Shown in pieces: positions 3,805 through 63,300 of a stretch of DNA of 64,000 bases. Under the pieces are notes generated by a model that did no database searches, had not been told where the DNA came from, and worked only from the letters and a program-made list of their open reading frames with translations. Position 1 is the first letter of the stretch. The number at the start of each line of letters is the position of its first letter. Both the position numbers and the translations under genes were made by a program. The DNA lies in NCBI GenBank assembly GCA_016283935.1, contig JAEENX010000007.1, forward strand, positions 13,123-77,122. The letters run 5' to 3'. This DNA comes from Bacilli bacterium (GTDB lineage Bacteria > Bacillota_I > Bacilli_A > RF39 > UBA660).

Positions 3805-5193
3805 TCACTTACCAATATGCCATATAGCATGATATGTATCACCTTCACATACTGGTATTTCTGCTACAATCAATGGTGAAACAACATCATAATGCATATC
3901 TGAATTATATGATTTAACATTAGCAAAGTATTGAGCTCTTCGTCTACCTGATTTAGCAACATAAATTCCATCACGGATTTTGCAATTTGAGAATCCATAA
4001 AAATCATAATATTCTTCTTCTGATTTTAAAGTTGCTATTTTATCAATTGCATCAGAACTAGTTACTACAATATCTCCTTCACCACAATCACTTTCTATGT
4101 AATTATCTGGTCTTTCATAATCAACATCATAACCAATTTTATTTCTTAGATCCATAGAAGGTTCTACATAAATATCTTCATATTTTCCAAGTGGTATTAT
4201 AACTTTATCATCATAATAGTAATCATGTTCCATGAAATAATAATGAGGAGGAATATCTTCTTTTCTAATAGTCTTTATTAATTGATTATCTGAATATACT
4301 TTTACATATGAATTATCCCCAAATAATGGTTCATCATTGTTGCGAGATATTCTATAAATAGATAAATATGCATTATAATTAGAAATTCCTTCCTTAACCG
4401 TAAAACTAGCAGAATCATATTCTTGAACACTTATAAAACCACTACATGTTAATTTTTCCGAAGCAACTACTTCATTTGAACCAAGGCATATTTCTTTAAC
4501 ATTTGAATCTTCATCAAATGAACCTCTATCAGTTACCAATTTATATTTACAATTTTCAACAGTAATTGTTGAATTTATTTTAATGTTACACTTACATACA
4601 GCTTTTACTATTGTTGGTATTAATATTACTAATGCAAGTGTTAACATCATTGCTCTAAATGTTTTATTCTTCTTGGAAGAATAAATAACAACAAAAGCGA
4701 CTATTAATAATACTGGTAATATATATAACAAAGATTTAACTCCTGTAGGTGGATTTGAAATCTTTCCTCCAGTTAAATCTAAATCAAACGAATTTGTTTC
4801 ATTAAATTTTCCTAAACCAGGATCATTAATTAAAGAAACACTTAATGTAAGTTCTCTTGTCGAACCAGCTTTAACAATCATATTATCTGTTTCAAATAAA
4901 TATTTAACATTTGTATATTTCTTATTAAACATTGATTCATCTAAAACATAATCACCATCAGTATTATTAACAACAGTGATTTTATATTTAATATAATCAT
5001 CTACTCTTGTAAATGAAATATCTAAATCAATAACAGTTCCATTTGCTTTTGCTGGTGTTATTTCAGCTGATCCTTCAGCTTTTTCAATCATTTCAATTGT
5101 TTGAATTGTTACTCCTTCTGTATTACATGTTTCTGCAAATACATTAATTGGAATTAATAATATACTTAAGAATATAATTAATATTTTTTTCAT
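3805..5193 (-). CDS. Surface protein paralog A: signal peptide, Ig-like N-domain, internal NPPTG sorting signal, second TM, Cys-rich C-domain
   Basis: MKKILIIFLSILLIPINVFA signal. ...ISNPPTG VKSLLYILPVLLIVAFVVIYS SKKNK is a complete tripartite sorting signal at aa 150-185. It is followed by the hydrophobic segment MMLTLALVILIPTIVKA and a ~270-aa Cys-rich domain. Confidence 0.7.
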   Translation of the reverse strand: MKKILIIFLSILLIPINVFAETCNTEGVTIQTIEMIEKAEGSAEITPAKANGTVIDLDISFTRVDDYIKYKITVVNNTDGDYVLDESMFNKKYTNVKYLFETDNMIVKAGSTRELTLSVSLINDPGLGKFNETNSFDLDLTGGKISNPPTGVKSLLYILPVLLIVAFVVIYSSKKNKTFRAMMLTLALVILIPTIVKAVCKCNIKINSTITVENCKYKLVTDRGSFDEDSNVKEICLGSNEVVASEKLTCSGFISVQEYDSASFTVKEGISNYNAYLSIYRISRNNDEPLFGDNSYVKVYSDNQLIKTIRKEDIPPHYYFMEHDYYYDDKVIIPLGKYEDIYVEPSMDLRNKIGYDVDYERPDNYIESDCGEGDIVVTSSDAIDKIATLKSEEEYYDFYGFSNCKIRDGIYVAKSGRRRAQYFANVKSYNSDMHYDVVSPLIVAEIPVCEGDTYHAIWHIGK

Positions 5194-5342: not shown

Positions 5343-6731
5343 TTAGTTATCAGTTGATCTACCATTATACCAAATTGCTTTATATTTGTTTCCAGTACAA
5401 ACTTGATGAGTACTAGTTGTCGAAGCAAATGCCATGTCGGCTGGATATACTGGATTTAGTTCTTCTTGTTCATCTACATCTACACAATTAGTAAATCCAA
5501 CTAATCCATCTTGATCATTTGAATATATTAAATTACTGATTTTTTCATTGATAACTTCACTTGTTACAACATTAGCTCCACTTGGACAACTTCCTTCATA
5601 ATACACTTCTTCTGGATCAGGTCCATGTTCAACAGTATACTCAACTTTATTTCTTAAATCTTTTGAAAGAGTAACATATGCATCATCATATTCACCAATA
5701 GGTATTAGCATATATCTTTCAATTAAATCCAAATATTTTCCATCTTCTAATGAATAATAATGTGGCATTATATCGTCTTTTGTAACAGTTTTAATTAATT
5801 TAGTTTTATTTTCATCAGAATATACTTTTATATATGAATTATCATTAAAAACTGGTTCTATAGTACCGTGATTTTCATATGATAGTATTAAATATAAGTA
5901 TGTATAATCACTTGGAACACGTGCATCACGACTAGTTCCTCTTCTTGATGGAGATCCTTCAAAATAAAATCTAGGTCCCTTACATGTTAGTTTTTCTGAT
6001 GCAACTATTTCATTTGCACCTACACATATTTCTCTAACATCTGATCCTTCTTCAAAAGATCCAATATCAGTAGTTAATTTATATTTACATCCTTCAACAG
6101 TAACTGTTGAATTAATTTTTAAATTACATTTACAAATAGCTTTTACTACTGTAGGTATTGTTATTACTAATGCTAAAATAACAGCAATTGTTTTAAATGA
6201 TGTTTTCTTTTTAGATATAAATAATACTACCAATGAAATTATTATCAATACAGGTAACATATATAATAACGATTTAACTCCTGTAGGTGGATTAACAATC
6301 TCACCACCTGTTAAATCCAAATCAAATGAGTTAGTTTCATTGAATTTATCAACAGTTGGATTCTTAGTTAAAGATATAACTAATGTTAAATCTCTGGCAG
6401 CTCCTGCTTTTACCATTTTATCATCTGTTTCAAAAGTATATTTAACATTTGTATACTTTTTATTAAACATTGATTCATCTAAAACGTAATCTACATCAGT
6501 ATTATTTTTAATTGTAGTTTTATATTTAATATAATCATCTACTCTTGTAAATGATACATCTAAATCTATAACTGTTCCATTTACTTTTGCAGCACTTAAT
6601 TCGGCAGCTCCAGCAGCTTTTTCAATCATTTCAATTGATTGAACAGTAACTCCTTCTGCATTACATGTTTCCGCAAATACATTGATTGGAATTAAAATTA
6701 TACTTAAAAATAAAATTAAAATTTTTTTCAT
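5343..6731 (-). CDS. Surface protein paralog B: same architecture with internal NPPTG, diverged C-domain
   Basis: About 85% identical to paralog A over the first ~230 aa (IVNPPTGVKSLLYMLPVLIIISLVVLFISKKK...), then divergent. The upstream intergenic sequence is also duplicated. Confidence 0.7.
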   Translation of the reverse strand: MKKILILFLSIILIPINVFAETCNAEGVTVQSIEMIEKAAGAAELSAAKVNGTVIDLDVSFTRVDDYIKYKTTIKNNTDVDYVLDESMFNKKYTNVKYTFETDDKMVKAGAARDLTLVISLTKNPTVDKFNETNSFDLDLTGGEIVNPPTGVKSLLYMLPVLIIISLVVLFISKKKTSFKTIAVILALVITIPTVVKAICKCNLKINSTVTVEGCKYKLTTDIGSFEEGSDVREICVGANEIVASEKLTCKGPRFYFEGSPSRRGTSRDARVPSDYTYLYLILSYENHGTIEPVFNDNSYIKVYSDENKTKLIKTVTKDDIMPHYYSLEDGKYLDLIERYMLIPIGEYDDAYVTLSKDLRNKVEYTVEHGPDPEEVYYEGSCPSGANVVTSEVINEKISNLIYSNDQDGLVGFTNCVDVDEQEELNPVYPADMAFASTTSTHQVCTGNKYKAIWYNGRSTDN

Positions 6732-10912: not shown

Positions 10913-13171
10913 CTACTTTTTCTTTTTAGTATCCTTACATTCTTTGTCTTTACATTTGCAATCTTTAACATCAACTTTGTTATCTACATGTAATACTCTT
11001 TCTTTAATTTCTTGAGTTCTACCTTTGTTCCAGAAATTAGTTCCAATGTATCCACATGTACGTCTTGCAACATTTAATGTATCATGGTTTCTATTACCAC
11101 AATTTGGACAATACCATTCTAACTTGTCATCTAATAAAATTTCTCCATCATATCCACATTGTTGGCAATAATCACTCTTTGTATTTAATTCTGCATACAT
11201 GATGTTATTGTAAATGAAATCAATAATTTCAAGTACTGCAGGAATATTGTTTTGTAAGTTTGGAGTTTCAATATATGAAATAGCTCCACCTGGTGATAAT
11301 CTTTGGAAATCAGATTCAAGTTTTAACTTAGTAAATGCATCGATTTCTTCGAATACAGGAACATGATATGAATTAGTAATATAATTTCTATCAGTAATTC
11401 CTTTAATTACACCAAATCTTTCTTTTAATCCTTTAGCAAACTTATATGTAGTTGATTCGATTGGAGTACCATATACTGAATAATCAATATTTTCAGCAGC
11501 TTTCCATTCAGCACATTTATCATTTAAGCGTTGCATAACTTTAATACCAAATTCATAACCTTTTCCACCATCAGTATGTGAATGTCCAGTCATATATTTA
11601 ACACATTCATATAAACCAGCATATCCTAATGAGATAGTAGAATATCCATTATGTAATAATTCGTGAATTGATTCACCTTTTTCTAATCTAGCTAATGCAC
11701 CATGTTGCCATAAAATTGGAGCAACGTCAGATAAAGCACTTGCTAATCTTTCATGTCTTACTTGTAATGCTCTATGACATAATTCTAGTCTTTCATCTAA
11801 GATATCCCAGAATAAATCCATATCTTTTTCAGAACTTAAAGCTACATCTGGTAAGTTAATAGTAACAACGCCTTGGTTGAATCTACCATAATATTTAGGT
11901 TTACCAGGAACATAGTTCTTAGCTTTAGCAACATTACCTTTACTAATTGATCTATCAGGTGTTAAGAAAGATCTACATCCCATACATGGATAGCAATCTC
12001 CATCACCATTTTCATTTATCTTTAATTCTTTCATTACTTTTTCTGAGATATAGTCAGGAACCATTCTCTTAGCAGTACATTGAGCAGCTAACTTAGTTAA
12101 GTAATAATATTTACCTTTCTTATTAATGTTATCTTCTTCAAGAACATATAATAATTTAGGGAATGCAGGAGTAATATAAACTCCTTTTTCATTCTTCATA
12201 CCTTCAATTCTTTGTTTTAATACTTCTTCAATGATCATTGCTAATTCTTCTTTGTATTCATCTGTTTCACCTAAATACATGTTAACTGATAAGAATGGAG
12301 CTTGACCATTTGTAGTAGTCATGGAATTAATTTGATATTGGAATGTTTGTACACCATCAGTGATTTCTTTCTTTAAATCTTCTTTAGCATACTTTTCACA
12401 ATCTTCGGCATTAAATCCACGTTTCTTATATTTTTTTAAATAACTTTCATAACTTGATCTAACAAATGGTGCTAAATGAGTTAATGTAATAGTACATCCA
12501 CCATATTGAGAAGAAGATACAGCAGTAATTAATTGAGTAGCAATTGTCATAGCTGTTAAGAATCTATGAGGTTTTTCAATCATTACTCCATTAATATTAG
12601 TTCCATTTTGTAACATATCTTCTAAGTTGATTAAGTCACAATTATGTAATGCATTTTGTGCAAAATAATCTGCATCATGGAAATGAATAATACCAGCATC
12701 ATGAGCTTTAACTACATCTTCTGGTAATAAGAATCTTCTAGTAATATCTGTTGAAGTTATACCAGCAAGGTAATCTCTTTGTACAGTAACAATCTTAGCA
12801 TTCTTATTTGAATTTTCAGTATTCCAATATTCTGATTCTCCATCAATTAATTCCTTAATTGATAAGTCAGTAGTATTAGATCTTCTAACTAATTCTCTTG
12901 TATATCTATAAGTAATATATTCTTTTGCCAATTGATATTTACCTAAAGACATAAGTCTCATTTCAATGATATCTTGAATGTCTTCTACTAACATTCTTTT
13001 CTTTTTCATATTCTCAATATATTTGATAATATTTTTAATTTGTGCAGGAGTAACTTTATCATCATCATCTACTTCTGCGTTTGCCTTTAAAATTGCGTTT
13101 TCAATTTTGGCTGGTTCGTAGTCTACTACTCTACCATCTCTCTTGATTATTTTCATATTTACCTCTCCCAA
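10913..13171 (-). CDS. nrdD: Anaerobic ribonucleoside-triphosphate reductase
   Basis: N-terminal ATP cone (KIIKRDGRVVDY), C-terminal Zn ribbon (CQQCGY...CPNCGN) and glycyl-radical motif RTCGYIG. Confidence 0.95.
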   Translation of the reverse strand: MGEVNMKIIKRDGRVVDYEPAKIENAILKANAEVDDDDKVTPAQIKNIIKYIENMKKKRMLVEDIQDIIEMRLMSLGKYQLAKEYITYRYTRELVRRSNTTDLSIKELIDGESEYWNTENSNKNAKIVTVQRDYLAGITSTDITRRFLLPEDVVKAHDAGIIHFHDADYFAQNALHNCDLINLEDMLQNGTNINGVMIEKPHRFLTAMTIATQLITAVSSSQYGGCTITLTHLAPFVRSSYESYLKKYKKRGFNAEDCEKYAKEDLKKEITDGVQTFQYQINSMTTTNGQAPFLSVNMYLGETDEYKEELAMIIEEVLKQRIEGMKNEKGVYITPAFPKLLYVLEEDNINKKGKYYYLTKLAAQCTAKRMVPDYISEKVMKELKINENGDGDCYPCMGCRSFLTPDRSISKGNVAKAKNYVPGKPKYYGRFNQGVVTINLPDVALSSEKDMDLFWDILDERLELCHRALQVRHERLASALSDVAPILWQHGALARLEKGESIHELLHNGYSTISLGYAGLYECVKYMTGHSHTDGGKGYEFGIKVMQRLNDKCAEWKAAENIDYSVYGTPIESTTYKFAKGLKERFGVIKGITDRNYITNSYHVPVFEEIDAFTKLKLESDFQRLSPGGAISYIETPNLQNNIPAVLEIIDFIYNNIMYAELNTKSDYCQQCGYDGEILLDDKLEWYCPNCGNRNHDTLNVARRTCGYIGTNFWNKGRTQEIKERVLHVDNKVDVKDCKCKDKECKDTKKKK

Positions 13172-48704: not shown

Positions 48705-50039
48705 CTAGTTTATTTGGAACATTTTAGTATATCTACCTTCACCTGAATATACATCAGTCATATCTTCAATATATTCATAATTAGTATATAATTTAGAACC
48801 CCTTTGTTTATAACTATATTTAACTGTTCTAACACCATATAGTAATGATTCTGCAATATATAAATATTCATCATCTTTACCAACAAGTAATGCTGTATGA
48901 CCATTTCTAGCTATTACATCGCCTATTTTATATTTATCTGAATTAGCATATTCATATGTTAAATCATGTCTTGGTCCTAAATCAGACATATCTCTAACAT
49001 CTTCTACTATTCCAGCACCAATGTCTCCTACATCAGTTCCACCATTCATAAGTGCCCATGTTACAAATCCTGAACAATCTAATCCATTAGGTTTTTTAGC
49101 TCCAACAGCCCAACCATCTGTATCATCATAATTTGTTAAAGGACATCCCCAAGTAGCTTTCTTTTCTTTAACATAGTCATCATTTATATTTTTATATCTT
49201 GATTCATTTAAATATAATCCTAAATGATGATATCTTCCTTCACCATCTACTTTTCTTTGACCTTCATAATAAGTATCCAATCTTCCATGTTCATAGAAAT
49301 AAGTTACTTTATATGGGAAAGATAAAGTTAAGAATCTAGCTGCAGCAATAGCACCACCTCTAGTACCACGTCCAGCATAATCTACTCTTTCTTTTAATAA
49401 TTCATCTAAATAATCATTTTGTTCTTCAGTATAAACATTACATGTTAATTTTTGTTTTCCTAAATCAAAGACTGGTTTAACAATCATATCAGTAACAGTA
49501 AATTTAGCTGTTTTAGTAATACCATTTGAAGTTTTTGCAGTAATTACTGCATCTCCTTCACTTACTCCATATACTATTCCATTTTCATCAACTGTTACTA
49601 TGCTATCATCACTTGATGAATAATTGATCTTTTTATCAGGTTCACCTATAAAATCAATTGTAGTATCTAACTCAAACTTCTCACCTATAGCAATATGAAA
49701 TGATTCTAAGTTTAAATCCATACTAATGATTTCATTAGCATCTACATTAAAATTGATTTCATCTTCCCTATTAAAGCTTTTAACTTTTAAAGTATAATCT
49801 CCATTTTCCAAATCAAATTTACAACTATTAGAACTAACTCCATTTACAGTACATTCAATTGGAAAAATATTTGGAACATTAACATTTATTGTAACATTTT
49901 TTGTTTTATTATCATTTACACCTACTGCATAAGTAATACTTTTTATACTAATAGGCAAGTTTAAATATCTATAAGTCACATAACATGTACATATAATTGT
50001 TATTATTAATAAAAATATAACTATAACCCTTTTTTTCAT
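48705..50039 (-). CDS. Big_2-domain NlpC/P60 cell-wall hydrolase (start placed at the second Met)
   Basis: Big_2 (IVTVDENGIVYGVSEGDAVITAKT), NlpC/P60 Cys (LDCSGFVTW) and His (GDVIARNGHTALLVG). The ATG at 50039 follows a hairpin; the track start at 50084 lies inside that hairpin. Confidence 0.65.
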   Translation of the reverse strand: MKKRVIVIFLLIITIICTCYVTYRYLNLPISIKSITYAVGVNDNKTKNVTINVNVPNIFPIECTVNGVSSNSCKFDLENGDYTLKVKSFNREDEINFNVDANEIISMDLNLESFHIAIGEKFELDTTIDFIGEPDKKINYSSSDDSIVTVDENGIVYGVSEGDAVITAKTSNGITKTAKFTVTDMIVKPVFDLGKQKLTCNVYTEEQNDYLDELLKERVDYAGRGTRGGAIAAARFLTLSFPYKVTYFYEHGRLDTYYEGQRKVDGEGRYHHLGLYLNESRYKNINDDYVKEKKATWGCPLTNYDDTDGWAVGAKKPNGLDCSGFVTWALMNGGTDVGDIGAGIVEDVRDMSDLGPRHDLTYEYANSDKYKIGDVIARNGHTALLVGKDDEYLYIAESLLYGVRTVKYSYKQRGSKLYTNYEYIEDMTDVYSGEGRYTKMFQIN

Positions 50040-50087
50040 ATAAATCACTACCAATAATTTAGCACATATAAATAGTTTATACAATAT

Positions 50088-50115
50088 AAAAAGAACTATA
50101 AAAATAGTTCTTTTT
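50088..50115 (-). terminator. Hairpin (attenuator-like) between the large SipW-cognate gene and the NlpC/P60 gene
   Basis: aaaaagaactat-aaaa-atagttcttttt. Confidence 0.4.
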
Positions 50116-51670
50116 AATCAAAACTTTCAGATACTTTTTTGACTGTGATATTAGTGAATATTTCATCTAAAGAAACCTCATTAGAATCGAAATCTAATAC
50201 TAATACACCATCATCTCTTGAATCAAATGTTTCACCTACAGCAATCGTATATGAATTAGGTGAATAATACTTATTTTCACTATTAGCTTTAATACTTGTA
50301 GTAGTTATTACACCTGTCATCCTATTTGGTAAATAACTTGCTTGAGCATCAATAGTTACTTTTGGATTTAATGTTAATTCAATAGTCCATTCATTAATAT
50401 CTTCATCAGTAGTATTTTCAATAGTAAATCCAAATCTATAATGTCTAGCCCATCCATTTATTTGTTTAACACTATATGAAACAGTTGGTTCAACTAAATC
50501 ACTTGGATCTACAGGTTCGTCTGGTTCATCAGGTTCATCAGGTTCATCTGGCTCTTCTGGTTCAGCTACTGGATCTCCTTGAGGAGCATAGTTAGTTGAA
50601 TCTGTTTCAATACCAATTGGTCCATTGTAAGTTACAAGAATTGGATCTTCTTGAGTACCACTTCCACCAGCATACATTACGTCTTCTTTTAAATACATTG
50701 TAGGTCTTACGCCATAAGCATAACTAGCTGCAAGCGCATATATATCACCTTGATACATAGTTACAACAGTATCAGCATAACTTGTAGAATATGCAGGACT
50801 AATAGTCCATTCACCATATTGAGTAGCTAACCATGAATTTTTATAACAATCATTACCCATAGCTAATTCATAACACGCATCATCGTCAACAGAATATCCA
50901 AAATCACTTGGATATGGTAAACCAACATAAGTTAATATTGAGGATGGTCTTGAACTATTATCATTACATCTATTATTAAACCAACTTGATCTACATCCTT
51001 TAGGTGATGCATTACCATTTTCAGATTGCATCAAGAATGCAGGAGTCATATAGCTTGGATTATTATCTATTGAATATGGATTAGTACTTCCTAAATTCCA
51101 ATATACTTTTTCAACCATACTAGCAGCTGTAACTGATAATCCTTTATAATCACATTGTTTAGAAGACATTCTACTACCAGTAATACATGTATAATGATTA
51201 TATTCATTATATGATTTATAGTAAAAATTCTTATACAAATAATTATATACTTGAGAAGTTGTAAAATCATTTGTACCATTTCCATTATTATAGTAATAAT
51301 TACTATTCCAAGCTAATCCTTCAACATAATCAGCTCTTGTAATCTTAGTTAATCTTTTTGTTGAATCTTGAGTAGCAACATCAAATGTACCAATTATTCT
51401 CCATAACTCTCCATTATATAAAATATAATTGTTAGGATTTGTTCCTACATATCTAGAAGCATTTCCAACACTTTTAACATCTAATTTTTTAGCTACTTGT
51501 GAGTCAACATACTCAGTTAAACTATTCTTTTTAAATGCTTTAATAACTGCTCCACCAGTTATCATTAATTCAGTATTAAAGGCAGCATAAGAAAAAGTCA
51601 CAACGGATATTGTGACAAAAAACGCGAACATAAAAATTGTATTTCTTATATGTCTGTTCAAAACATTCAC
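50114..51670 (-). CDS. Large secreted protein with a SipW-cognate/TasA-type signal and a (PDE)n repeat
   Basis: N-terminus ...TISVVTFSYAAFNTELMITGGAVIKA compared with the TasA ...TWAAFNDIKSK..ASGTLDL pattern; Y/N/S-rich with Cys pairs; EPEEPDEPDEPDEPDEP repeat. Confidence 0.5.
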   Translation of the reverse strand: MNVLNRHIRNTIFMFAFFVTISVVTFSYAAFNTELMITGGAVIKAFKKNSLTEYVDSQVAKKLDVKSVGNASRYVGTNPNNYILYNGELWRIIGTFDVATQDSTKRLTKITRADYVEGLAWNSNYYYNNGNGTNDFTTSQVYNYLYKNFYYKSYNEYNHYTCITGSRMSSKQCDYKGLSVTAASMVEKVYWNLGSTNPYSIDNNPSYMTPAFLMQSENGNASPKGCRSSWFNNRCNDNSSRPSSILTYVGLPYPSDFGYSVDDDACYELAMGNDCYKNSWLATQYGEWTISPAYSTSYADTVVTMYQGDIYALAASYAYGVRPTMYLKEDVMYAGGSGTQEDPILVTYNGPIGIETDSTNYAPQGDPVAEPEEPDEPDEPDEPDEPVDPSDLVEPTVSYSVKQINGWARHYRFGFTIENTTDEDINEWTIELTLNPKVTIDAQASYLPNRMTGVITTTSIKANSENKYYSPNSYTIAVGETFDSRDDGVLVLDFDSNEVSLDEIFTNITVKKVSESFD

Positions 51671-51673
51671 TTC

Positions 51674-52834
51674 CTATGCATGTCCATTTTGATCTACATA
51701 CCATCTTGTTATTCTATATTTATATAATGTATCTCCTTCAATTATAACAAAGAAACATTTTTGTCCAGGCATTACATTGTAATATAGAATTGGAGATCCT
51801 TCGTTAATAGAAGCATCAACTAATTGTTCAAATGTTTCAGGATATATGATATTAGTATATTTAGATTCATCTATATCTAATTTACCTCTAACTATTACTC
51901 TATCATAATCTTTTAATATTTTACTAACTAGAGATGTATATAAATCTTTAGTTTTAAATCTCTTATATTCTTTTATAAATCTTAAGAATAAATAGATTAC
52001 AACTTCAATTAATATAACAAATATAATAAACATTGGAATGCTTTTAATAGTAAACTTTTTAGTACTTATTAAGAAATCTTGTTTATTAATATTGTTTGAG
52101 TTTTTCTTTATTGAAGTAGTTGCATCTGTTAAAGGAATTTCAATTTCTTGAAGAATATCTCTTTCATATTTCTTATCCATTCCTTCTTTAGTACCTGTTA
52201 CATGAAGATTCATATAAACATATACTTTAGCAGTAGCAGCTATTCTTAAATCTTGTTTAAAATTATTTGCTTTATCTTTATATTTTTGGAAATCTATCGC
52301 TACAGATTCATTTATATTTATACTAGAACCTGTAAGTTTTTGTTTATCTTTAGCTAATTCTACTACATTATCTTCATCATTAGTTAAAGGAGTTTTTTCA
52401 TCAGTATAATCTAATACTACATATTTAGAAGCTATAGTATAACTATATTCTAAATCTAAAGTATCTGGTGAATGGAATTCATAACTAAATGTAGGATTAA
52501 CAGTTTCAATTAAACTAGATGGATAATTCATTCCTGAATTAAGAATAGTATCACTATAGTTTTCATTTTCTTTAATCTTTACTTTATAAGTTACGTTAGC
52601 CATTTCATTATATGATAAACCATCTACTATAGTATTAAATGAAATAGATCTCATAAATAGTGAAACAGTGATTAAAAGGACTACTATCAAAGGTAAAACT
52701 ACACATACAAAGAAACCTGTTGTTGAGTAAGCAGGTTTACCTTTTTTTGTAACTGTATATGAATTGTTTCTACTTTGATATTTCATCTCTTTAGTCATAT
52801 CAGCTATTTCTCCTTCACTAAGTCTCTTAGCCAA
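51674..52834 (-). CDS. Bitopic/2-TM protein with an internal SipW-cognate-like motif; overlaps the peptidase gene by 31 nt
   Basis: A 45-aa cytoplasmic N-tail, a TM, then LFMRSISFNTIVDGLS; a second TM near aa 265; a C-terminal cytoplasmic domain of about 95 aa. Confidence 0.45.
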   Translation of the reverse strand: MAKRLSEGEIADMTKEMKYQSRNNSYTVTKKGKPAYSTTGFFVCVVLPLIVVLLITVSLFMRSISFNTIVDGLSYNEMANVTYKVKIKENENYSDTILNSGMNYPSSLIETVNPTFSYEFHSPDTLDLEYSYTIASKYVVLDYTDEKTPLTNDEDNVVELAKDKQKLTGSSININESVAIDFQKYKDKANNFKQDLRIAATAKVYVYMNLHVTGTKEGMDKKYERDILQEIEIPLTDATTSIKKNSNNINKQDFLISTKKFTIKSIPMFIIFVILIEVVIYLFLRFIKEYKRFKTKDLYTSLVSKILKDYDRVIVRGKLDIDESKYTNIIYPETFEQLVDASINEGSPILYYNVMPGQKCFFVIIEGDTLYKYRITRWYVDQNGHA

Positions 52835-53964
52835 ATAGAAGGTAACCCTAAATATGAAAATTTAAAATCAGTTTTACCCACTATTTCATTCTTAGTAACA
52901 AGCCAATCATCGACAGCTTGTCCATCTCTATCACCTTTTGTGATAAATGATTTTTCTCCGTTATTTTCAATAACTTCGATAATTCTATGAGTATAGTATT
53001 TACCAGATATATTAAATACAATAACATCTCCATTATTTAATTCATTATATCTTGTACTATAACTCTTATCTACAACAATTAAATCTCCGATTTTAATTGT
53101 AGGATCCATAGATCCAGATCCAACAACACAAACCCAAAATCTAAATATATTACTATTTAAACATACCATTGCAATTACTATAATAAATAATATTACACCA
53201 GTAATTTTTGTAACAATATGTTTATTTCTAATATCTTCTTTATTCTTTTTATTCTTCTTAAATATATCTGGAACACCAATATGCAATAATAACATTATTA
53301 TGATAGGAATTAACATATCAACTACTGTTTCAACATACTTTGAAAAACTTGGTATAATTGGTATTACATATCCATATAAATTAAATATACAACTATATAT
53401 TAAAGCAGTCTTTAATCCATGTTTATATGAAATAACAGTTAATCCTATATTCATAAATAAACATTGCATGAATGTTGTAGTAAACAATTTTAAAAATGGT
53501 TCCAAACTTCTTATATCTACGAAGCTATTTCTTGTAGCAAAATCTACAAATGTAAATAATAGTATATTTGCTACCAATATAAATCTATTACATCCACTTC
53601 TTTGATTAATAGTAAATCTACAAAACTCTTCCAATACTATTATTACTAATACTGGAACAACATTTTTAACTATATCAAAGAATTTCAAACTATATGGATT
53701 ATTATAAAATCCTGTAATTAAACCCAAAGAATATTTTAATACTAGAAAGGCAATTGAATAAAATAAACATAATTTCATTGATTGCTTTCCTGTAAATAAA
53801 TTATCTCTTGGAATACTACATGCTATTGCAAGTGAAGTAAGTAATACCATTAAAAATATGATAATACCAAATTCACCTAAAAACTCATGCATTATTGAAT
53901 TAAATAAAAGAATAATTAATGATAATATTTGAATAAAGAATATTTTTCTTTCACCACTTCTCAT
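52804..53964 (-). CDS. 8-TM polytopic domain fused to an ER/archaeal-type (S26B, SipW/Sec11-like) signal peptidase I
   Basis: C-terminal domain has box B VVGSGSMDPTIKIGDLIVV, box C GDVIVFN, box D YTHRII and box E FITKGDRDGQAVDD. It is preceded by eight predicted TM helices with polar intramembrane residues (LEEFCRF, NQRSGCNRF, LLLHIGVPD). Confidence 0.8.
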   Translation of the reverse strand: MRSGERKIFFIQILSLIILLFNSIMHEFLGEFGIIIFLMVLLTSLAIACSIPRDNLFTGKQSMKLCLFYSIAFLVLKYSLGLITGFYNNPYSLKFFDIVKNVVPVLVIIVLEEFCRFTINQRSGCNRFILVANILLFTFVDFATRNSFVDIRSLEPFLKLFTTTFMQCLFMNIGLTVISYKHGLKTALIYSCIFNLYGYVIPIIPSFSKYVETVVDMLIPIIIMLLLHIGVPDIFKKNKKNKEDIRNKHIVTKITGVILFIIVIAMVCLNSNIFRFWVCVVGSGSMDPTIKIGDLIVVDKSYSTRYNELNNGDVIVFNISGKYYTHRIIEVIENNGEKSFITKGDRDGQAVDDWLVTKNEIVGKTDFKFSYLGLPSIWLRDLVKEK

Positions 53965-53987
53965 ATAATCACCCTTTTAATAAAAAT

Positions 53988-54011
53988 AGGTATAACTACA
54001 GAGTTATACCT
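53988..54011 (-). terminator. Intrinsic terminator between the small TasA-like gene and the peptidase gene
   Basis: AGGUAUAACU-cugu-AGUUAUACCU (10-bp stem) followed by AUUUUUAUU. Confidence 0.6.
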
Positions 54012-54031
54012 AATTTCTTTATATAATTAAA

Positions 54032-54652
54032 TTAAGCTTGTCCGTATACTAAAACTGTATCAGAAATTGCTACTGTAACATCTCCAGCTGGTAAATCGTT
54101 AGGATCATTAGTTTCTCTGTATTTAACAGTGATTTTTAATGTCTTAGATCCTGGAGTGTTTAATGATAGTTTAGGTAATACTTCATCAACTAAAATGTCA
54201 GATCCGTCAACATAAGTAGTTGTAACTGTAACTGCGTTTTCCATTTTTTCTTCATCAGCAGCAGCTGCAGTAGGATCAGTTAAGTTACTAGTATATCCAG
54301 TTACTTTTGCTAAAGTAGCACTAGATAATTTAGCATCATAAGTACCCCAGTTTTCAACAGGTACTGTAAATGTAACTTCATCACCAGGAGTTTTTAAAGC
54401 AACATTGAATCCAGTGATAACTGTTTTAGTATCATCTAGTTTTGGTCCACTACCAAAGATTGCAGCAGTTCCAGTTGTTTCAACTTCTCCTATTTCTCCA
54501 AAGTGTACATCCCATTTAGATGCTTCAATTTTTGCTCCAGATGAGATAACTAAAGTTTGTGAAAAAGATGCCCAAACGATAGATACAAATCCGAATACAG
54601 CAGCGATTGCAACGATTGCAACCATTAATGAATTAAATTTTTCTTGTTTCAT
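54032..54652 (-). CDS. Small secreted TasA/camelysin-like protein with a SipW-cognate signal (candidate major fibre subunit)
   Basis: ...AVFGFVSIVWASFSQTLVISSGAKIEA N-terminus; beta-rich 206 aa. GC is about 35% by hand count over two 100-nt stretches. It has its own promoter and terminator. Confidence 0.55.
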   Translation of the reverse strand: MKQEKFNSLMVAIVAIAAVFGFVSIVWASFSQTLVISSGAKIEASKWDVHFGEIGEVETTGTAAIFGSGPKLDDTKTVITGFNVALKTPGDEVTFTVPVENWGTYDAKLSSATLAKVTGYTSNLTDPTAAAADEEKMENAVTVTTTYVDGSDILVDEVLPKLSLNTPGSKTLKITVKYRETNDPNDLPAGDVTVAISDTVLVYGQA

Positions 54653-54705
54653 TTCTTTTCTCCTCTTTCTTTTTTTACAATAGACTTCCCTCTATCTTTA
54701 AATAA

Positions 54706-54714
54706 ATTATACCA
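54706..54714 (-). promoter_or_regulatory. Extended -10 (TGgTATAAT) promoter for the TasA-like gene
   Basis: Minus-strand aaatgGTATAATtt about 45 nt upstream of the ATG; the -35 is weak. Confidence 0.35.
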
Positions 54715-54785
54715 TTTAGTATTTAAACGTAAAATATAAATGTCAAAAAAAATATGTCACTTTACACAAATTATTAACATAAAAA

Positions 54786-54808
54786 AAGAATGTATTAATT
54801 ACATTCTT
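54786..54808 (-). terminator. Intrinsic terminator of the four-gene hypothetical operon
   Basis: aagaatgtaat-t-aattacattctt hairpin. Confidence 0.5.
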
Positions 54809-55245
54809 ACTAAATGTCTTTTACAAGCCTTTTTTGATAGGTTAACAGTAACTTCATTACCATTTACATATGGTAATAATTCTTCTATTTTAGCTACATC
54901 TAATTGAAAACCTTTTCTATCTAATGCAACTGTAAAATCTCTGTATGATACTATTTTTCTAAAAGTATTATAAACTATTTCTCCATTTTCACCTTCAAAT
55001 GGATTTTCTATTTCTACTTCTAATAAATCAGGACATACTAATAATTCATCAGTTACACTATCTTTAAATAAATAAAATCTAACATATTTCATGTTTTCTA
55101 TAATAGATTCTTCAGTTGCTCCATATTGATATGGTATTTGTGCATGAGTCATCATATTTAGAACAATATTAGCATCTATTCTATTATTAGATATTTGTTC
55201 AATTGAATGAGCTTCTCTAATTACTTCATCATCAATATATGACAT
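54799..55245 (-). CDS. Hypothetical protein (148 aa)
   Basis: ORF in an operon. Confidence 0.4.
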   Translation of the reverse strand: MSYIDDEVIREAHSIEQISNNRIDANIVLNMMTHAQIPYQYGATEESIIENMKYVRFYLFKDSVTDELLVCPDLLEVEIENPFEGENGEIVYNTFRKIVSYRDFTVALDRKGFQLDVAKIEELLPYVNGNEVTVNLSKKACKRHLVRM

Positions 55246-55591: not shown

Positions 55592-56476
55592 TTAACCTAC
55601 CTTCTTACTTCTTTGAATATTTGAATCATATCCATTTAATATTATTAATTTAGGTAATTTACTCCAATTATTAAATACTCTTACTTGAACTTTCTTAAGT
55701 CTATTTGAATTATAGAAATCTTTAACTTCATCATCATCTATTTTCTTAGCTCTAGATGTAGCTTTACTTCTAGTAAATAATGGTTCTTCTTTTAATATAG
55801 TACGAGTTACATATATTAAATTTTCTGTTAATAAGTCAGGATTTTTAATATCCTGTCTCAATTTACTATCTTCTCTACTCTTATTAATAATAATAGCACT
55901 TGCAAACCATTCTTGTAATTTACCACTTGTTTTTACTATGCGATCATATTGGTCTTTAGTTAGATATTCACTTCTTAATTTAAGTTCATGATAATCTCTT
56001 TCATTTTTATCTTCTAAAGCACGATATATTTGTAAAACTTCTTTATCATTCATATATATAGTTGCATATGCAATTAACATAGGAATTTCTCTATTATCTA
56101 AATCATCAAATCTTATAACATTGTTAGTTAATATTTCATGTTTAACTGTTTCATTTATCTTACTCTTAATCTTAGCAGTATTAACTACTGTATCAATTTC
56201 ATAAGGTATAGCATCTTTTATATCGAATAAACTCTTATATTCATATGGCATCTTTCTTTCAATAGATACACATATATCTCTTTGTTCTTCTTTAGAAATA
56301 TTTCTATAATAATTAAAGAATATATTATATGCGCTTTCATATAGTTTAATTGGATTAGCTAAATTAATATTAGCTATCAATCTTCTTGCATCTTTATATT
56401 CATCATTATTAGATTCCATATCATATGTTAATAATCTTCTATAAACTAAGTTATGAACATTTATTGCTAAATTCAT
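55592..56476 (-). CDS. Hypothetical protein (294 aa)
   Basis: ORF; 4 nt from the next gene. Confidence 0.4.
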   Translation of the reverse strand: MNLAINVHNLVYRRLLTYDMESNNDEYKDARRLIANINLANPIKLYESAYNIFFNYYRNISKEEQRDICVSIERKMPYEYKSLFDIKDAIPYEIDTVVNTAKIKSKINETVKHEILTNNVIRFDDLDNREIPMLIAYATIYMNDKEVLQIYRALEDKNERDYHELKLRSEYLTKDQYDRIVKTSGKLQEWFASAIIINKSREDSKLRQDIKNPDLLTENLIYVTRTILKEEPLFTRSKATSRAKKIDDDEVKDFYNSNRLKKVQVRVFNNWSKLPKLIILNGYDSNIQRSKKVG

Positions 56477-56590
56477 AAGTGTTTCAACATCAATATATTT
56501 ATTTTCTTCAACACTTTTTATAATACAAGATGTTTCAATTATGTTTTCAATAGTATCAAGATTATAATAAGCAGATGTATAACTTCTTAA

Positions 56591-57553
56591 TTAAGGGAAT
56601 AAATCTCTTAATTCTTGTCTATCTTCATATGGAATTGAATGTTCTTCATTTATAATTCTATATTTTCTATTTATATAATCTTCTATACCATTTATAACTT
56701 CTTCTTTAGTTCTAGAAGATTTCTTTTCTTCTGATAAATATGTTCTAGATAAAATATCATCCATGATATCATTTACAGATTTTAAACTTTCTTCTATAGG
56801 TTCTTCCTTAGGAATAACAGGTATAATATCATCTGTATTAATAACAGGAAGTGTTCTAGTATCTAAAAGTTTATCCATTTCTTCTTCAGTTGGTAATACT
56901 AAAGTTTCTGTATTTTCTTTAATATCATAGTCTAATCCAGGAACTTCTATATCTTGAGTTTTTTCAACAATTGGTTCTTGAACCTTAGGCTCAACAACCT
57001 TTGTTTCAACAACTTTTGGTTCTTCTTTTTTCTTTTCTGCTTTTTTAACTTCTACTTTAACTTTAACCTTAACTTGTTTAGGTTCTTCTTTCTTAACTTC
57101 TACCTTCTTATTTCTATTAGCAGCATTTACTTTACTAATTTGTTCTTCTATAGTTAAGAAATCTTTTAAACATCTTTCAGCAGTCTTAACTTTATCAGAG
57201 CCATCTCTTTTAATATAACTAATATATGTATCTCTAAATTTCTTATCTTTAGATATATTAACGGCATTAACGAGTTTACTCTTTTCAACAATGTTTAATA
57301 CTTGTTTATTTTCTATATCACTTAACATAGCTAACATAATATAAGCTAAATCAGCTTTCTTTTTATGTGTATTAGCTAGTTTTAATTTTAAATAAAATTT
57401 CTTTAATCTATCTTGTTGTTTAGGTTTATCTTTATAATCAATGATACCTAAAACTACTTCAAAAATTGATAAACAAGCATTACTATTTGAGTTTAAAATG
57501 TCGATATCATTCATATAAAGTTCTCCTTCCCGATTATATTTAAATTTTACCAA
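56591..57553 (-). CDS. Hypothetical protein with a Lys/Glu/Val-rich KVEVKK repeat
   Basis: KKVEVKKEEPKQVKVKVKVEVKKAEKKKEEPKVVETKVVEPKVQEP low-complexity repeat. Confidence 0.4.
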   Translation of the reverse strand: MVKFKYNREGELYMNDIDILNSNSNACLSIFEVVLGIIDYKDKPKQQDRLKKFYLKLKLANTHKKKADLAYIMLAMLSDIENKQVLNIVEKSKLVNAVNISKDKKFRDTYISYIKRDGSDKVKTAERCLKDFLTIEEQISKVNAANRNKKVEVKKEEPKQVKVKVKVEVKKAEKKKEEPKVVETKVVEPKVQEPIVEKTQDIEVPGLDYDIKENTETLVLPTEEEMDKLLDTRTLPVINTDDIIPVIPKEEPIEESLKSVNDIMDDILSRTYLSEEKKSSRTKEEVINGIEDYINRKYRIINEEHSIPYEDRQELRDLFP

Positions 57554-60648: not shown

Positions 60649-63300
60649 TTAATTTAATGGAATTAAATCAGATGTAATTCTGTTTCCTTGATAATCAAAG
60701 GCATTCATTACAGCTACATATTTAACATCATCTTCAATTTCATTCATAAAGAAATGATAATTTGGATATTTATATGGAACTAATTCATGTCCTATATAAG
60801 TTGGATGTGATTTCCAATCTAATGTATAATGTCCACCTTCATCTGTAATTATATATCTGAAATTCCAGAATTGAACTGTTCTCCAATCTTCTATTTGCCA
60901 TTTTATCTTATTCTTAGATATATCTTCATTTGTTTCTTGTTTTGGAACAATACCATCAACATCTACTTGTCCATCTTTAACATATACTTGAAGATATCCT
61001 AATTCAGAACGATAATTTTTAAATCCATCATCCCAATTTTCCATTCTGGCGGATAAATTATATAAAGTTCCACGGTTAGTAAGTTTTCCTTGGAAAGCCA
61101 TTGCAAATGCAATATCACTTTCTCCATCTTCAGCTTCACCATCATCTTCTGAATCAAAGCATACTATTTTTCTATCATAGAATCCACCTAATTTATTACC
61201 TCTTAATACTACGTTATCTCCTCTAAATACAGGAGTATAATAACCTTCACCCATATCTCTAAATACTAAGTAGAATCCTCTAGCATAATTTTGAGCTTGT
61301 TCATCAGTTAATTCCATAGTAATAACTCTTTCATCCTTATCAAATTCAGATTTCAAAGTACCAGGACTAGATTCAGTATATGATTTAGTAATTGGAGCTC
61401 CATTATATAAATTATAATAATTACTTAAGAAATCATTATAATCTTTAAAATCAGCAAAGAATATTGGATATAATTTAGAAAGTATTAAATCTGTAGTTTC
61501 TTTATCAATATGTAATGGGTAATAAATAGATAATCCAGTTGAATTTTTTAAATTAGAATTACTATATACTACTGCATCAGTAATTGTACTAGATAAATCA
61601 TTAAATCCTAACTTATCACTAAACATTTTTAAATCAATTAAATCGTATCCATTATCTCCAAATTCAAGAGTATCTAATCTACTCTTAGAAAGATTACTAA
61701 ATTGGCTATTTATATCAACTGATTTAAATCTCTCATTTAACTTACTAACAACATTATCTACTTTGGATAAATCTACTAATGATAATGTATAAATAAATTG
61801 TGTTCCTAATTTTTGACTATATTCAGCATTTGAATCAGCAAACGAATTTATAATTTGTTTTCCTAAAGAAATAGAATCAAGTCTAGAAGCATTTTCAAAT
61901 CCCTTATCATATGTCCATCCAAGATTATACTCAGATTCTTCACTTGCAATATAATAACTAGCATATTCATCTAATAAGTTTGCCATTTCGATTGAACCCA
62001 TTAAACATGCATCAAAACCTATAAATTCAAATTTTCTATTTTTATTAAATTTAGTAGCAGCAAGTGCAGTTGCAATTTCATTTGCATATAATCTATCATT
62101 ATTAACTTCATCTACACCGTATCCAATGATTGGTCCACCACCATGATCCCATAAAATCAAATCATAGTATTCTGAATCTGTTATACCATCAACAGTATTA
62201 ATAAATGAGGCTAAAATATTTGGATCACCCATATTTAAGTTACCATTCATTCCAATTTTAGTATATCCACCATCTTTAACATGAAGAATATCTCCATTAT
62301 TAAGACCATCAATACCCCATTGTTTTGATCCACCTAATAATACATAAAAATCTGTAGCATCATCTTTTACTTGAGCCATTTCATAAATGTCTCTAGATGC
62401 AGCATATCCATTTGATTCCAAATCAGTACCTACTAAATATACTAATACTGATCTAGTTATTTTTTTCTTTTCTTCAACAGTTGGTGCTTGTGTTGTAATA
62501 ACTCTTGTTGTAGTTGTTGTAGTTGTTGGTACATATGAAGTTCTTGTTGTTACTCCATGTGTTGTATATACACCACTACTAGTAGTTGTGGTTGTTGTTG
62601 TAGTTGTTGTACTAGTATTCTTTGTTGTAGATTGTTGTGTTGTTTGTTGTGTTGTTTGTTGTGTAGTACTTGGTTTTACAGTTGTTTGGTATGTCGATTG
62701 TGTTGTTGATTGTGTTGTCTTTACTGTTGTTTTTTCAGTAGTGTTTGCCTTAGTTGTTGTTACATATGTAGATCTTGTAGTTGTTGTCGGTGTTGTTACA
62801 GGTCTAGTTGTTTGTGAAACAGTTGTTGATGTAACTTTAGATGTACTTGTAGTTCTAGGTGCTGTAGTTGCAGTAGTATTTGTTATAACTACATCATTAT
62901 CATCAATATAATATGGTACTGCATCATAATTAAATTGATATTCACCTGTATAAATTGATGAATTATTTATTAATTCTCTATTCTTTCTAGTATTTATTAC
63001 TAATGCAATTGTTAATACTATAATAATTGAAATTAATACAACAAACCCTATAATTACAAATAATTTACTATTACTCTTTTTAGGTTCTACAGGAGGTTGT
63101 ACTGGAGCTACTGGTTGAACCGGTTGTTGTACCGGAGTAACACTTTGAGCTATTCCTGCATTTACTGGTTGTTGCATAACACTATTAACTTCTTGTGCAG
63201 TTGGTTGAACTTGAACAAGTGAATTATTCTTTGCTCCACATGTTGGGCAAAATGCAGCATTAACATCATATTGATTATTACAATTTTCACAATTTTTCAT
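60649..63300 (-). CDS. Type-II membrane-anchored clostripain-like (C11) cysteine peptidase with an N-terminal zinc ribbon, Pro/Gln-rich and Thr-rich linkers
   Basis: CENCNN...CPTCG, a TM, a poly-Thr linker, then WDHGGGP (His) and FDACLMGS (Cys) as in peptidase C11. Confidence 0.6.
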   Translation of the reverse strand: MKNCENCNNQYDVNAAFCPTCGAKNNSLVQVQPTAQEVNSVMQQPVNAGIAQSVTPVQQPVQPVAPVQPPVEPKKSNSKLFVIIGFVVLISIIIVLTIALVINTRKNRELINNSSIYTGEYQFNYDAVPYYIDDNDVVITNTTATTAPRTTSTSKVTSTTVSQTTRPVTTPTTTTRSTYVTTTKANTTEKTTVKTTQSTTQSTYQTTVKPSTTQQTTQQTTQQSTTKNTSTTTTTTTTTTSSGVYTTHGVTTRTSYVPTTTTTTTRVITTQAPTVEEKKKITRSVLVYLVGTDLESNGYAASRDIYEMAQVKDDATDFYVLLGGSKQWGIDGLNNGDILHVKDGGYTKIGMNGNLNMGDPNILASFINTVDGITDSEYYDLILWDHGGGPIIGYGVDEVNNDRLYANEIATALAATKFNKNRKFEFIGFDACLMGSIEMANLLDEYASYYIASEESEYNLGWTYDKGFENASRLDSISLGKQIINSFADSNAEYSQKLGTQFIYTLSLVDLSKVDNVVSKLNERFKSVDINSQFSNLSKSRLDTLEFGDNGYDLIDLKMFSDKLGFNDLSSTITDAVVYSNSNLKNSTGLSIYYPLHIDKETTDLILSKLYPIFFADFKDYNDFLSNYYNLYNGAPITKSYTESSPGTLKSEFDKDERVITMELTDEQAQNYARGFYLVFRDMGEGYYTPVFRGDNVVLRGNKLGGFYDRKIVCFDSEDDGEAEDGESDIAFAMAFQGKLTNRGTLYNLSARMENWDDGFKNYRSELGYLQVYVKDGQVDVDGIVPKQETNEDISKNKIKWQIEDWRTVQFWNFRYIITDEGGHYTLDWKSHPTYIGHELVPYKYPNYHFFMNEIEDDVKYVAVMNAFDYQGNRITSDLIPLN

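Follow-up and report, generated by a model that had tools for sequence, protein, structure and literature searches.

The abpX loci of bacteria and archaea encode a fibre subunit, a signal peptidase I with ten helices, a DUF5305 accessory protein and tip or minor subunits (bioRxiv 10.64898/2026.01.04.697558). Their peptidase has been contrasted with the usual two-helix type, and in Bacillus the TasA locus has SipW plus TapA; among AbpX homologues the acidic residue of the donor strand is strongly conserved and calcium coordination is frequent, though not universal (bioRxiv 10.64898/2026.01.04.697558). Here a locus of this kind is described in a 64,000-nucleotide stretch (hereafter the window) of contig JAEENX010000007.1, from a Bacilli bacterium of the RF39 lineage. 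The 206-amino-acid (aa) product of the gene at 54032..54652 is probably the major subunit of an extracellular, donor-strand-complemented fibre of the TasA superfamily, nearest to its AbpX branch. It was compared with AbpX of Pyrodictium abyssi (PDB 9SJ2, 9RHP) and with AbpX-like loci of Bacillota, Chloroflexota and archaea. The gene and the parts of its product are as follows.

54032..54652, minus strand: coding sequence of the putative AbpX/TasA-type fibre subunit precursor; ATG start, 206 aa, with 20 close homologues, a wider family of thousands and homology to AbpX
54569..54652, minus strand: signal peptide, residues 1-28 (MKQEKFNSLMVAIVAIAAVFGFVSIVWA); hydrophobic segment with predicted cleavage after V-W-A28, aligned with the AbpX site
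54512..54568, minus strand: predicted N-terminal donor strand, residues 29-47 (SFSQTLVISSGAKIEASKW), aligned residue for residue with Q1-V19 of AbpX
54035..54511, minus strand: beta-sandwich core, residues 48-206, with the PGDEVTFTVPVENWGTYDA motif; AlphaFold2 confidence (predicted local distance difference test, pLDDT) mostly 84-95 per 10-residue block

When 5.8 billion proteins were searched by word index, 20 relatives of the subunit were returned, all from metagenomes or metagenome-assembled genomes (MAGs). An exhaustive HMMER search with a profile of this close clade gave 3838 cluster representatives at E <= 1e-3 and 1167 at E <= 1e-10. The best 150 matches were mostly of about 200 aa and aligned over their full length, some being longer with C-terminal extensions; a few giant DUF11-repeat proteins matched the family profile solely at the PGD motif. 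In the subunit-like region none of ten sampled relatives matched any curated family above threshold, and plasmid and phage collections yielded no homologue. Three family members (P0063, P0047 and P0053) fuse an N-terminal subunit-like module to other domains, a GDSL lipase/esterase in P0063 and extensions of about 200 aa without a family match in the other two; cargo display is a possible use of the fibre module.

A search of PDB sequences with the close-clade profile alone gave nothing meaningful. For comparison with solved or known proteins, an alignment of 92 diverse family sequences (A4) was used. The best PDB match of its profile was AbpX (9sj2_C, E 0.0056), with profile positions 31-186 aligned to residues 4-153 of the chain, which is near full length. 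Using hhalign, A4 was matched to the AbpX sequence with 93% probability (E 2.7e-7) and to an alignment of the AbpX family (A5; five sequences, AbpX and four relatives, P0169-P0173) with 96.5% probability (E 7.5e-10) over 154 columns, the cleavage sites and donor strands being in register. The homology thus extends over the end of the signal peptide, the donor strand and the core, and it makes AbpX, not TasA/camelysin, the demonstrable relative of the subunit within the TasA superfamily. A plain search seeded with the AbpX sequence does not reach the window family, returning only five close AbpX relatives with AbpX itself among them.

The hhalign register sets VWA/SFSQTLVIS of the subunit (the slash marks the cleavage site) against TYA/QWSETLSLS of AbpX, and so pairs F30 with W2 (the 'clamp'), L34 with L6, I36 with L8 and Q32 with E4, a calcium ligand. 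Among the 92 diverse relatives L34 and I36 are at least 95% conserved, Ala at -1 and an aromatic residue at -2 are nearly invariant, and A28 is also one of the most conserved positions of the family. As in AbpX, the predicted cleavage follows an aromatic residue and Ala, mature position 2 is hydrophobic or aromatic and positions 6 and 8 are Leu or Ile. Position 2 is Phe in all 20 close relatives, and in the wide family it is Leu in 43 sequences, Phe in 33, Met in 8 and Tyr in 7; the aromatic residue that marks the AbpX-like clade here is F30. Hydrophobic residues alternate along the strand (F30, L34, I36, A40, I42). The mature protein is acidic (pI 4.34, Asp plus Glu 14.0%), again as in the AbpX-like clade (pI about 4, about 15% Asp plus Glu).

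The AlphaFold2 models of the full-length protein (mean pLDDT 82.6) and of the mature chain (mean pLDDT 88) are both beta-sandwiches, nearly all strand with one helix, which bears out the sequence-only reading (an earlier annotation made from the letters alone) of a 206-aa beta-rich protein at 54032-54652. The first 20 or so residues of the mature-chain model are low-confidence coil, and in the monomer model residues 29-48 or thereabouts are coil with pLDDT 57-67; a free amphipathic N-terminal strand is a trait of the TasA superfamily. The N-terminal extension of the AbpX monomer is likewise disordered or of low confidence (bioRxiv 10.64898/2026.01.04.697558). Trimming to the mature chain was needed before Foldseek gave a TasA match. 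With that model the top PDB hit was the TasA fibre (8aur_A, probability 0.99, E 3.1e-3, TM-score 0.38); FimG, complete with donor strand, CfaB and the Tafi pilus came next. The structure prediction suggested by the sequence-only reading as a check for a TasA-like fold favours one by its top match and its free strand, at weak E-values and TM-scores. Taking the hhalign match to AbpX with this weak Foldseek match to TasA, the core is homologous to a solved member of the superfamily.

Two further systems share features with the subunit. The Tafi (Tat-fimbriae) pilus of haloarchaea (PDB 9P0A; PMC12337348, PMC11821415) is a bundling pilus of the donor-strand kind whose locus includes a DUF5305 gene, and it had the highest TM-score among the top fold matches, 0.45; unlike the window subunit, which has no twin-arginine motif, its subunits use Tat export. 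The chaperone-usher pilins (FimG, PapH, CfaB), which are among the fold matches, have an incomplete immunoglobulin-like fold that is completed by the N-terminal strand of a neighbour, but they are unrelated to the subunit in sequence, neither a periplasmic chaperone nor an usher occurs here, and the host lineage is Gram-positive.

The alternative that survives best is a secreted or wall-associated beta-sandwich of the CARDB/DUF11 type, processed by the neighbouring peptidase and not polymerising (a monomeric coat, adhesin or binding module). Individual family members do match DUF11 (best 1.8e-5), CBM_35 and CARDB weakly, and not TasA; UniRef labels AbpX itself a 'CARDB domain-containing protein'; and the weak fold matches include many non-fibre beta-sandwiches. 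However, no DUF11 or CARDB match rises above the Pfam gathering score and the sub-threshold ones span the PGD...N.G motif only, whereas the AbpX match runs from the end of the signal through the donor strand and the core. The N-terminal strand, moreover, is more conserved than the core and lies outside the monomer fold, and for a simple monomer it would be hard to explain why the locus has its own peptidase, a DUF5305 protein and another protein with this strand (see below). We regard this alternative as improbable.

The sequence-only reading had called the protein TasA/camelysin-like with a SipW-cognate type of signal. Features in common with the TasA/TapA/SipW system of Bacillus subtilis (PDB 8AUR, 5OF1; PMC9674648, PMC10151520), whose TasA fibre is the best PDB fold match, are a subunit that is a secreted beta-sandwich and carries a donor strand at its N-terminus, a dedicated signal peptidase gene of the endoplasmic reticulum (ER) type in the operon, a W-A/x-F cleavage region, and a second substrate with a similar N-terminus that could cap or nucleate. 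By eye, the aromatic residue at -2, Ala at -1 and Phe at +2 resemble TasA (VWA/SF against TWA/AF). The reading as a genuine TasA/camelysin (Peptidase_M73) orthologue whose signal is SipW-cognate, on the model of the tapA-sipW-tasA operon of Bacillus, could also draw on the PGD...EN.G motif common to both proteins and on a sub-threshold Peptidase_M73 match (E 0.0025) in one distant relative, but is very unlikely. The subunit and 19 close relatives do not match Peptidase_M73 or NF046066 even at E <= 10, whereas the TasA control scores 513.8 bits on NF046066. TIGR04088, the 34-position model of the SipW-cognate signal, does not match the N-terminal 60 aa of the subunit or of the 518-aa protein described below; the TasA control does (38 bits against a cut-off of 19) and AbpX also fails. 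With hhalign, solely the PGD...N.G motif of TasA is aligned, over 19-22 columns, with a probability of 2.3% (alignment A2) or 24.5% (A4, 22 columns) against the 96.5% over 154 columns found for AbpX. Gene order differs too, and, unlike in the SipW plus TapA locus, the peptidase here is extended by about nine helices and accompanied by a DUF5305 protein. A secreted fibre subunit related to TasA is thus retained from the sequence-only reading, and membership of the TasA family is not; similarly, the cleavage site resembles that of TasA and a SipW-type peptidase adjoins, without the signal itself conforming to the SipW-cognate model.

The signal peptide is conserved to an unusual degree. In the close clade residues 1-22 are invariant, and mean pairwise identity falls from 93% in the signal peptide to 71% in the next 19 residues and 55% in the core. 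As the DNA there shows synonymous differences, selection acts on the signal peptide itself. Part of the invariance may be due to ascertainment because the word index favours shared exact words; in P0022, the next relative by exhaustive search, the N-terminus is very similar, not identical. The AbpX family (A5) shows the same pattern: the signal's hydrophobic stretch and the donor strand (LVALLPLLALT..GLTYAQWSETL) hardly vary, and the n-region and core are divergent. Invariance of residues 1-22 at about 50% overall identity is unusual for a cleaved signal and recalls type IV pilins, but retention of the hydrophobic N-terminus as a membrane anchor or pilin-like polymerisation helix, giving a membrane-tethered protein or novel pilin, is highly doubtful, as the class III (G/FTLIE-type) signal looked for in MKQEKFNSLMVAIVAI, with its short basic leader, Gly at -1 and then Phe or Met heading a hydrophobic helix with Glu at +5, is absent, the small-x-small site V-W-A follows the hydrophobic region in alignment with the AbpX cleavage site, the equally conserved AbpX signal precedes the start of mature AbpX, the neighbouring enzyme is a type I signal peptidase and not a prepilin peptidase, and the invariance has the possible ascertainment component and the non-identical P0022 N-terminus just described. 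Cleavage of the fibre subunit after V-W-A28 is what we infer.

Immediately downstream of the subunit gene lie four genes on the same strand.

52804..53964, minus strand: dedicated signal peptidase I, 386 aa; about nine transmembrane (TM) helices, then a catalytic domain of the ER/archaeal (SipW/SEC11) type
51674..52798, minus strand: DUF5305-type accessory protein with two TM helices; the open reading frame (ORF) call runs to 52834, homologues start at M13
50114..51670, minus strand: 518-aa protein sharing the subunit's motif of signal, cleavage site and donor strand (FSYA/AFNTELMITGGAVIKA), with an unrelated large body; detected by hhalign and local hmmsearch
48705..50084, minus strand: 459-aa membrane-anchored protein; Big_2 domain, sub-threshold NlpC/P60, syntenic in close relatives

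The peptidase gene starts 68 nt downstream of the subunit stop, past a hairpin. Its product matches TIGR02228 (75.5 bits, cut-off 51.85) and Peptidase_S26, its best PDB match is SEC11C (1.3e-8), and S285, H326, D345 and D352 are invariant. Like the AbpX-like loci, with their peptidase of about ten TM helices, this one has a dedicated, polytopic signal peptidase I beside the subunit gene. Residues 1-275 of the peptidase also contain polar and other invariants (E112-E113-x-x-R116, F137-T138-x-V140-D141, K159, N172, K181, Y210 and E212). As these polar residues are kept even in an orthologue of 39% identity, the nine-helix extension may do more than anchor the enzyme. The possibility that the membrane domain is a CPBP/Rce1-type protease was considered and rejected: the motif is EExxR, not EExxxR, and the candidate His is not conserved.

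The DUF5305-type protein has a short cytoplasmic N-terminus, about 190 extracellular residues and a cytoplasmic C-terminal part of about 95 aa, its TM segments being placed by hydropathy at about residues 34-70 and 260-290. It falls below the Pfam threshold itself; homologues at 30-68% identity, those at 60-68% included, carry PF17231 (DUF5305), and through them this component of the AbpX-like loci is also present.

The N-terminus of the 518-aa protein aligns with the subunit family in hhalign over 36 columns (E 1.4e-4, probability 52%) and is matched by local hmmsearch too. The subunit and this protein are the only 2 of 144 window ORFs with the signal and strand motif. A PDB sequence search with the 518-aa protein gave no match, and BLASTP of its body against the C-terminal domains of longer family members such as P0047 was not significant. 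It is a candidate tip, cap or TapA-like nucleator, and corresponds in the locus to the tip-like protein of AbpX systems. Whether the 459-aa protein is part of the fibre system is uncertain; the more distant locus L004 lacks such a gene.

Synteny of the locus extends to two close relatives, one of them a 528-kb contig and the other a MAG that bears the label 'uncultured Bacillales bacterium'; the related contigs derive from ENA metagenome assemblies. In L004 the peptidase and the DUF5305 protein are encoded along with two paralogous subunits and a 719-aa protein that has a subunit-like domain at its N-terminus. Enolase is 97-98% identical among the close relatives, compared with 54% for the subunit, 45-56% for the 518-aa protein and 44-47% for a 148-aa neighbour. 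These last three have diverged most, and the subunit and the 518-aa protein evolve fastest within the locus. Such fast divergence of the subunit and the 518-aa protein is expected of exposed surface proteins and fits that role.

The sequence-only reading had given the subunit gene a promoter and terminator of its own, and here its central idea, a candidate major subunit with separate transcription signals, is upheld. These signals are listed below.

54706..54746, minus strand: promoter region, with TTGACA at 54746..54741, TTTACG at 54733..54728, TG at 54714..54713 and the -10 element TATAAT at 54711..54706
54660..54666, minus strand: ribosome-binding site AGAGGAG, 7 nt before the ATG, read from the sequence; the purine-rich block is kept in relatives
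53987..54012, minus strand: intrinsic-terminator hairpin between the subunit and peptidase genes; 11-bp stem, 4-nt loop and T-run

The core promoter is TTTACG-16-TATAAT with a preceding TG (54733..54706, minus strand), and a consensus scan found the additional TTGACA. The extended -10 (TGgTATAAT) reported earlier was thus found. Promoter-like strings as such are not enriched in this AT-rich window (74 found against 86 expected); the TTGACA, TTTACG and TG-TATAAT blocks are, though, invariant or nearly so in the related loci L001, L002 and L003, where the coding sequence has diverged to 54% protein identity. Terminators are in excess, a scan of the window giving 8 against 1.0 expected in shuffles. 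The 66-nt spacer that holds the hairpin has a minimum free energy of -15.3 kcal/mol (z = -2.75), and the hairpin, whose stem had been put at 10 bp and is 11 bp, is conserved in two relatives (L001 and L003). The promoter and terminator motifs of the subunit gene are therefore both present and conserved. An Rfam search of the flanks gave no significant match. Just upstream lies a gene for a cytoplasmic-looking protein of 148 aa (54799..55245, minus strand) that has no family match and is 44-47% identical to its orthologues; by eye it has an AT-rich hairpin and T-run apparently of its own, missed by the terminator scan.

The guanine plus cytosine (GC) content of the subunit gene had been put at 35-37% by hand count and taken as consistent with the codon bias of a very highly expressed gene. 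The computed value is 34.6%, against a mean of 26.1% (standard deviation 3.4) for 52 window ORFs and 26.2% for the whole window, ranking the gene first of the 52 (z = 2.55). In a sliding window the maximum, 0.35, is restricted to the gene, the flanks being at 0.22-0.25. By codon position the values are 48% (GC1), 43% (GC2) and 12.6% (GC3), the last being ordinary for the window. Because the excess lies in the first two positions it is mostly due to amino-acid composition (Thr, Val, Ala, Gly, Asp) and not to general synonymous choice, so that the enrichment stands and its explanation needs correcting. There is, separately, a smaller synonymous bias, and this is real: Phe, Tyr, Asn and Ile codons ending in C or T number 16:15 in the subunit gene against 112:866 in thirteen neighbouring genes (Fisher p = 1.1e-7), and the Ile codon ATA is used 1 time in 11 against 209 in 439. 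ATA is also avoided in the subunit orthologues of two related genomes. The codon-adaptation calculation proposed by the sequence-only reading was made with enolase and Pta as reference and placed the subunit 35th of 52; since neither reference gene shows selected bias the index is uninformative and was discarded. High expression of the subunit gene is plausible from its codons.

Several points weigh against the proposed fibre subunit. Pfam and NCBIfam, their TasA/camelysin and SipW-cognate models included, give no family match for the protein. The link to AbpX depends on profile comparisons, the direct profile-to-sequence E-value quoted above being only 0.0056. Mature position 4, acidic in the AbpX clade, is Gln here instead of the calcium-binding Glu and is acidic in only 1 of 20 close and 4 of 92 wide relatives; D18 of AbpX aligns with Lys, and the Cys pair of AbpX and most relatives is missing. 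All Foldseek matches are weak (E > 1e-3, TM-score 0.38-0.45), and with the full-length model only noise was returned, TasA not being in the top 50. The expression argument is softened because enolase, Pta and the L001 orthologue lack the preference for C-ending codons (in L001 it is not significant), which is also weaker in L003 (p = 0.022). The locus differs from that of AbpX in other respects as well: the mature chain has 178 aa and that of AbpX 163, the operon is flanked neither by an LPXTG or SLH anchor nor by a sortase, histidine kinase or cyclic di-GMP gene, and the host is a mesophilic-looking anaerobe of 26% GC, not a thermophile.

If the fibre reading is right, the precursor would be exported via Sec by its N-terminal signal peptide. 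The downstream peptidase, probably together with the two-helix DUF5305 protein, would cut after V-W-A28 and release the amphipathic strand S29-F-S-Q-T-L-V-I-S, which is disordered in the monomer. The freed strand would enter the open groove in the beta-sandwich of the next subunit, and head-to-tail repetition would give the fibre. The 518-aa protein could donate a strand but, having no core of the subunit type, presumably could not accept one, and would therefore occupy one end of the fibre as tip, adhesin or nucleator. A separate promoter, with a hairpin terminator before the genes for the machinery, would give a large stoichiometric excess of subunit. The roles of the partner proteins in this scheme, like the expression level of the subunit, are those that we infer.

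As the E4 ligand is replaced by Gln and the position is rarely acidic in the family, assembly of this fibre is probably not calcium-clamped in the manner of AbpX. A more speculative proposal, which we hold only tentatively, is that the signal peptide is a specific address tag and that the peptidase and DUF5305 protein form a dedicated membrane platform that retains the precursor and couples cleavage directly to polymerisation, a calcium-free Gram-positive 'usher'. It is suggested by the near-invariance of the signal and by the polar residues (EExxR and others) kept in the peptidase extension. If true, such a platform would feed a large, unannotated family of gut and rumen fibre subunits, some with enzyme or adhesin cargo.

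Other genes in the window were noted. The GH5 cellulase (1066..2805, minus strand), the anaerobic ribonucleotide reductase NrdD (10913..13171, minus strand) and a clostripain-family peptidase (60649..63300, minus strand) together indicate anaerobic life on plant fibre. Near the cellulase gene are two tandem 462-aa paralogues (5343..6731 and 3805..5193, both minus strand) without a Pfam match, and between these and the cellulase gene sits a 295-aa ORF, also without one. Each paralogue has a Sec signal peptide and a beta-sandwich-like module of about 120 aa. Behind these come an internal, sortase-like NPPTG motif with its hydrophobic stretch and KKK tail, and further on a second hydrophobic stretch ending in VVKA/ICKCNLKINSTVTVEG and a Cys-rich domain of about 260 aa. 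VVKA/ICKCNLKINSTVTVEG loosely resembles the fibre donor-strand motif (local hmmsearch E 4e-6 and 9e-6; hhalign probability 3.9%); at that hhalign probability a role of the paralogues as acceptor or anchor modules is unsupported. At 55592..57553 (minus strand) a single in-frame TAA (about 56591..56593) splits a gene into ORFs of 320 and 294 aa, neither with a Pfam match, where L001 and L003 have one ORF of 632-661 aa; either a nonsense mutation, which would make it a pseudogene, or an error of assembly may be the cause.

The analysis proposes a function for a large family of secreted proteins of about 200 aa that has no Pfam or NCBIfam model (the 1167 cluster representatives at E <= 1e-10). It would carry the AbpX-type system of subunit, polytopic peptidase, DUF5305 protein and tip protein beyond thermophiles, into very AT-rich anaerobes that are uncultured and have a GH5 cellulase as well. 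The missing calcium-clamp residue marks the subunit as a variant within this system. Such loci can usefully be sought by the combination of a fast-diverging subunit and a near-invariant signal peptide, and the fibres themselves probably serve in aggregation, biofilm formation or substrate attachment.

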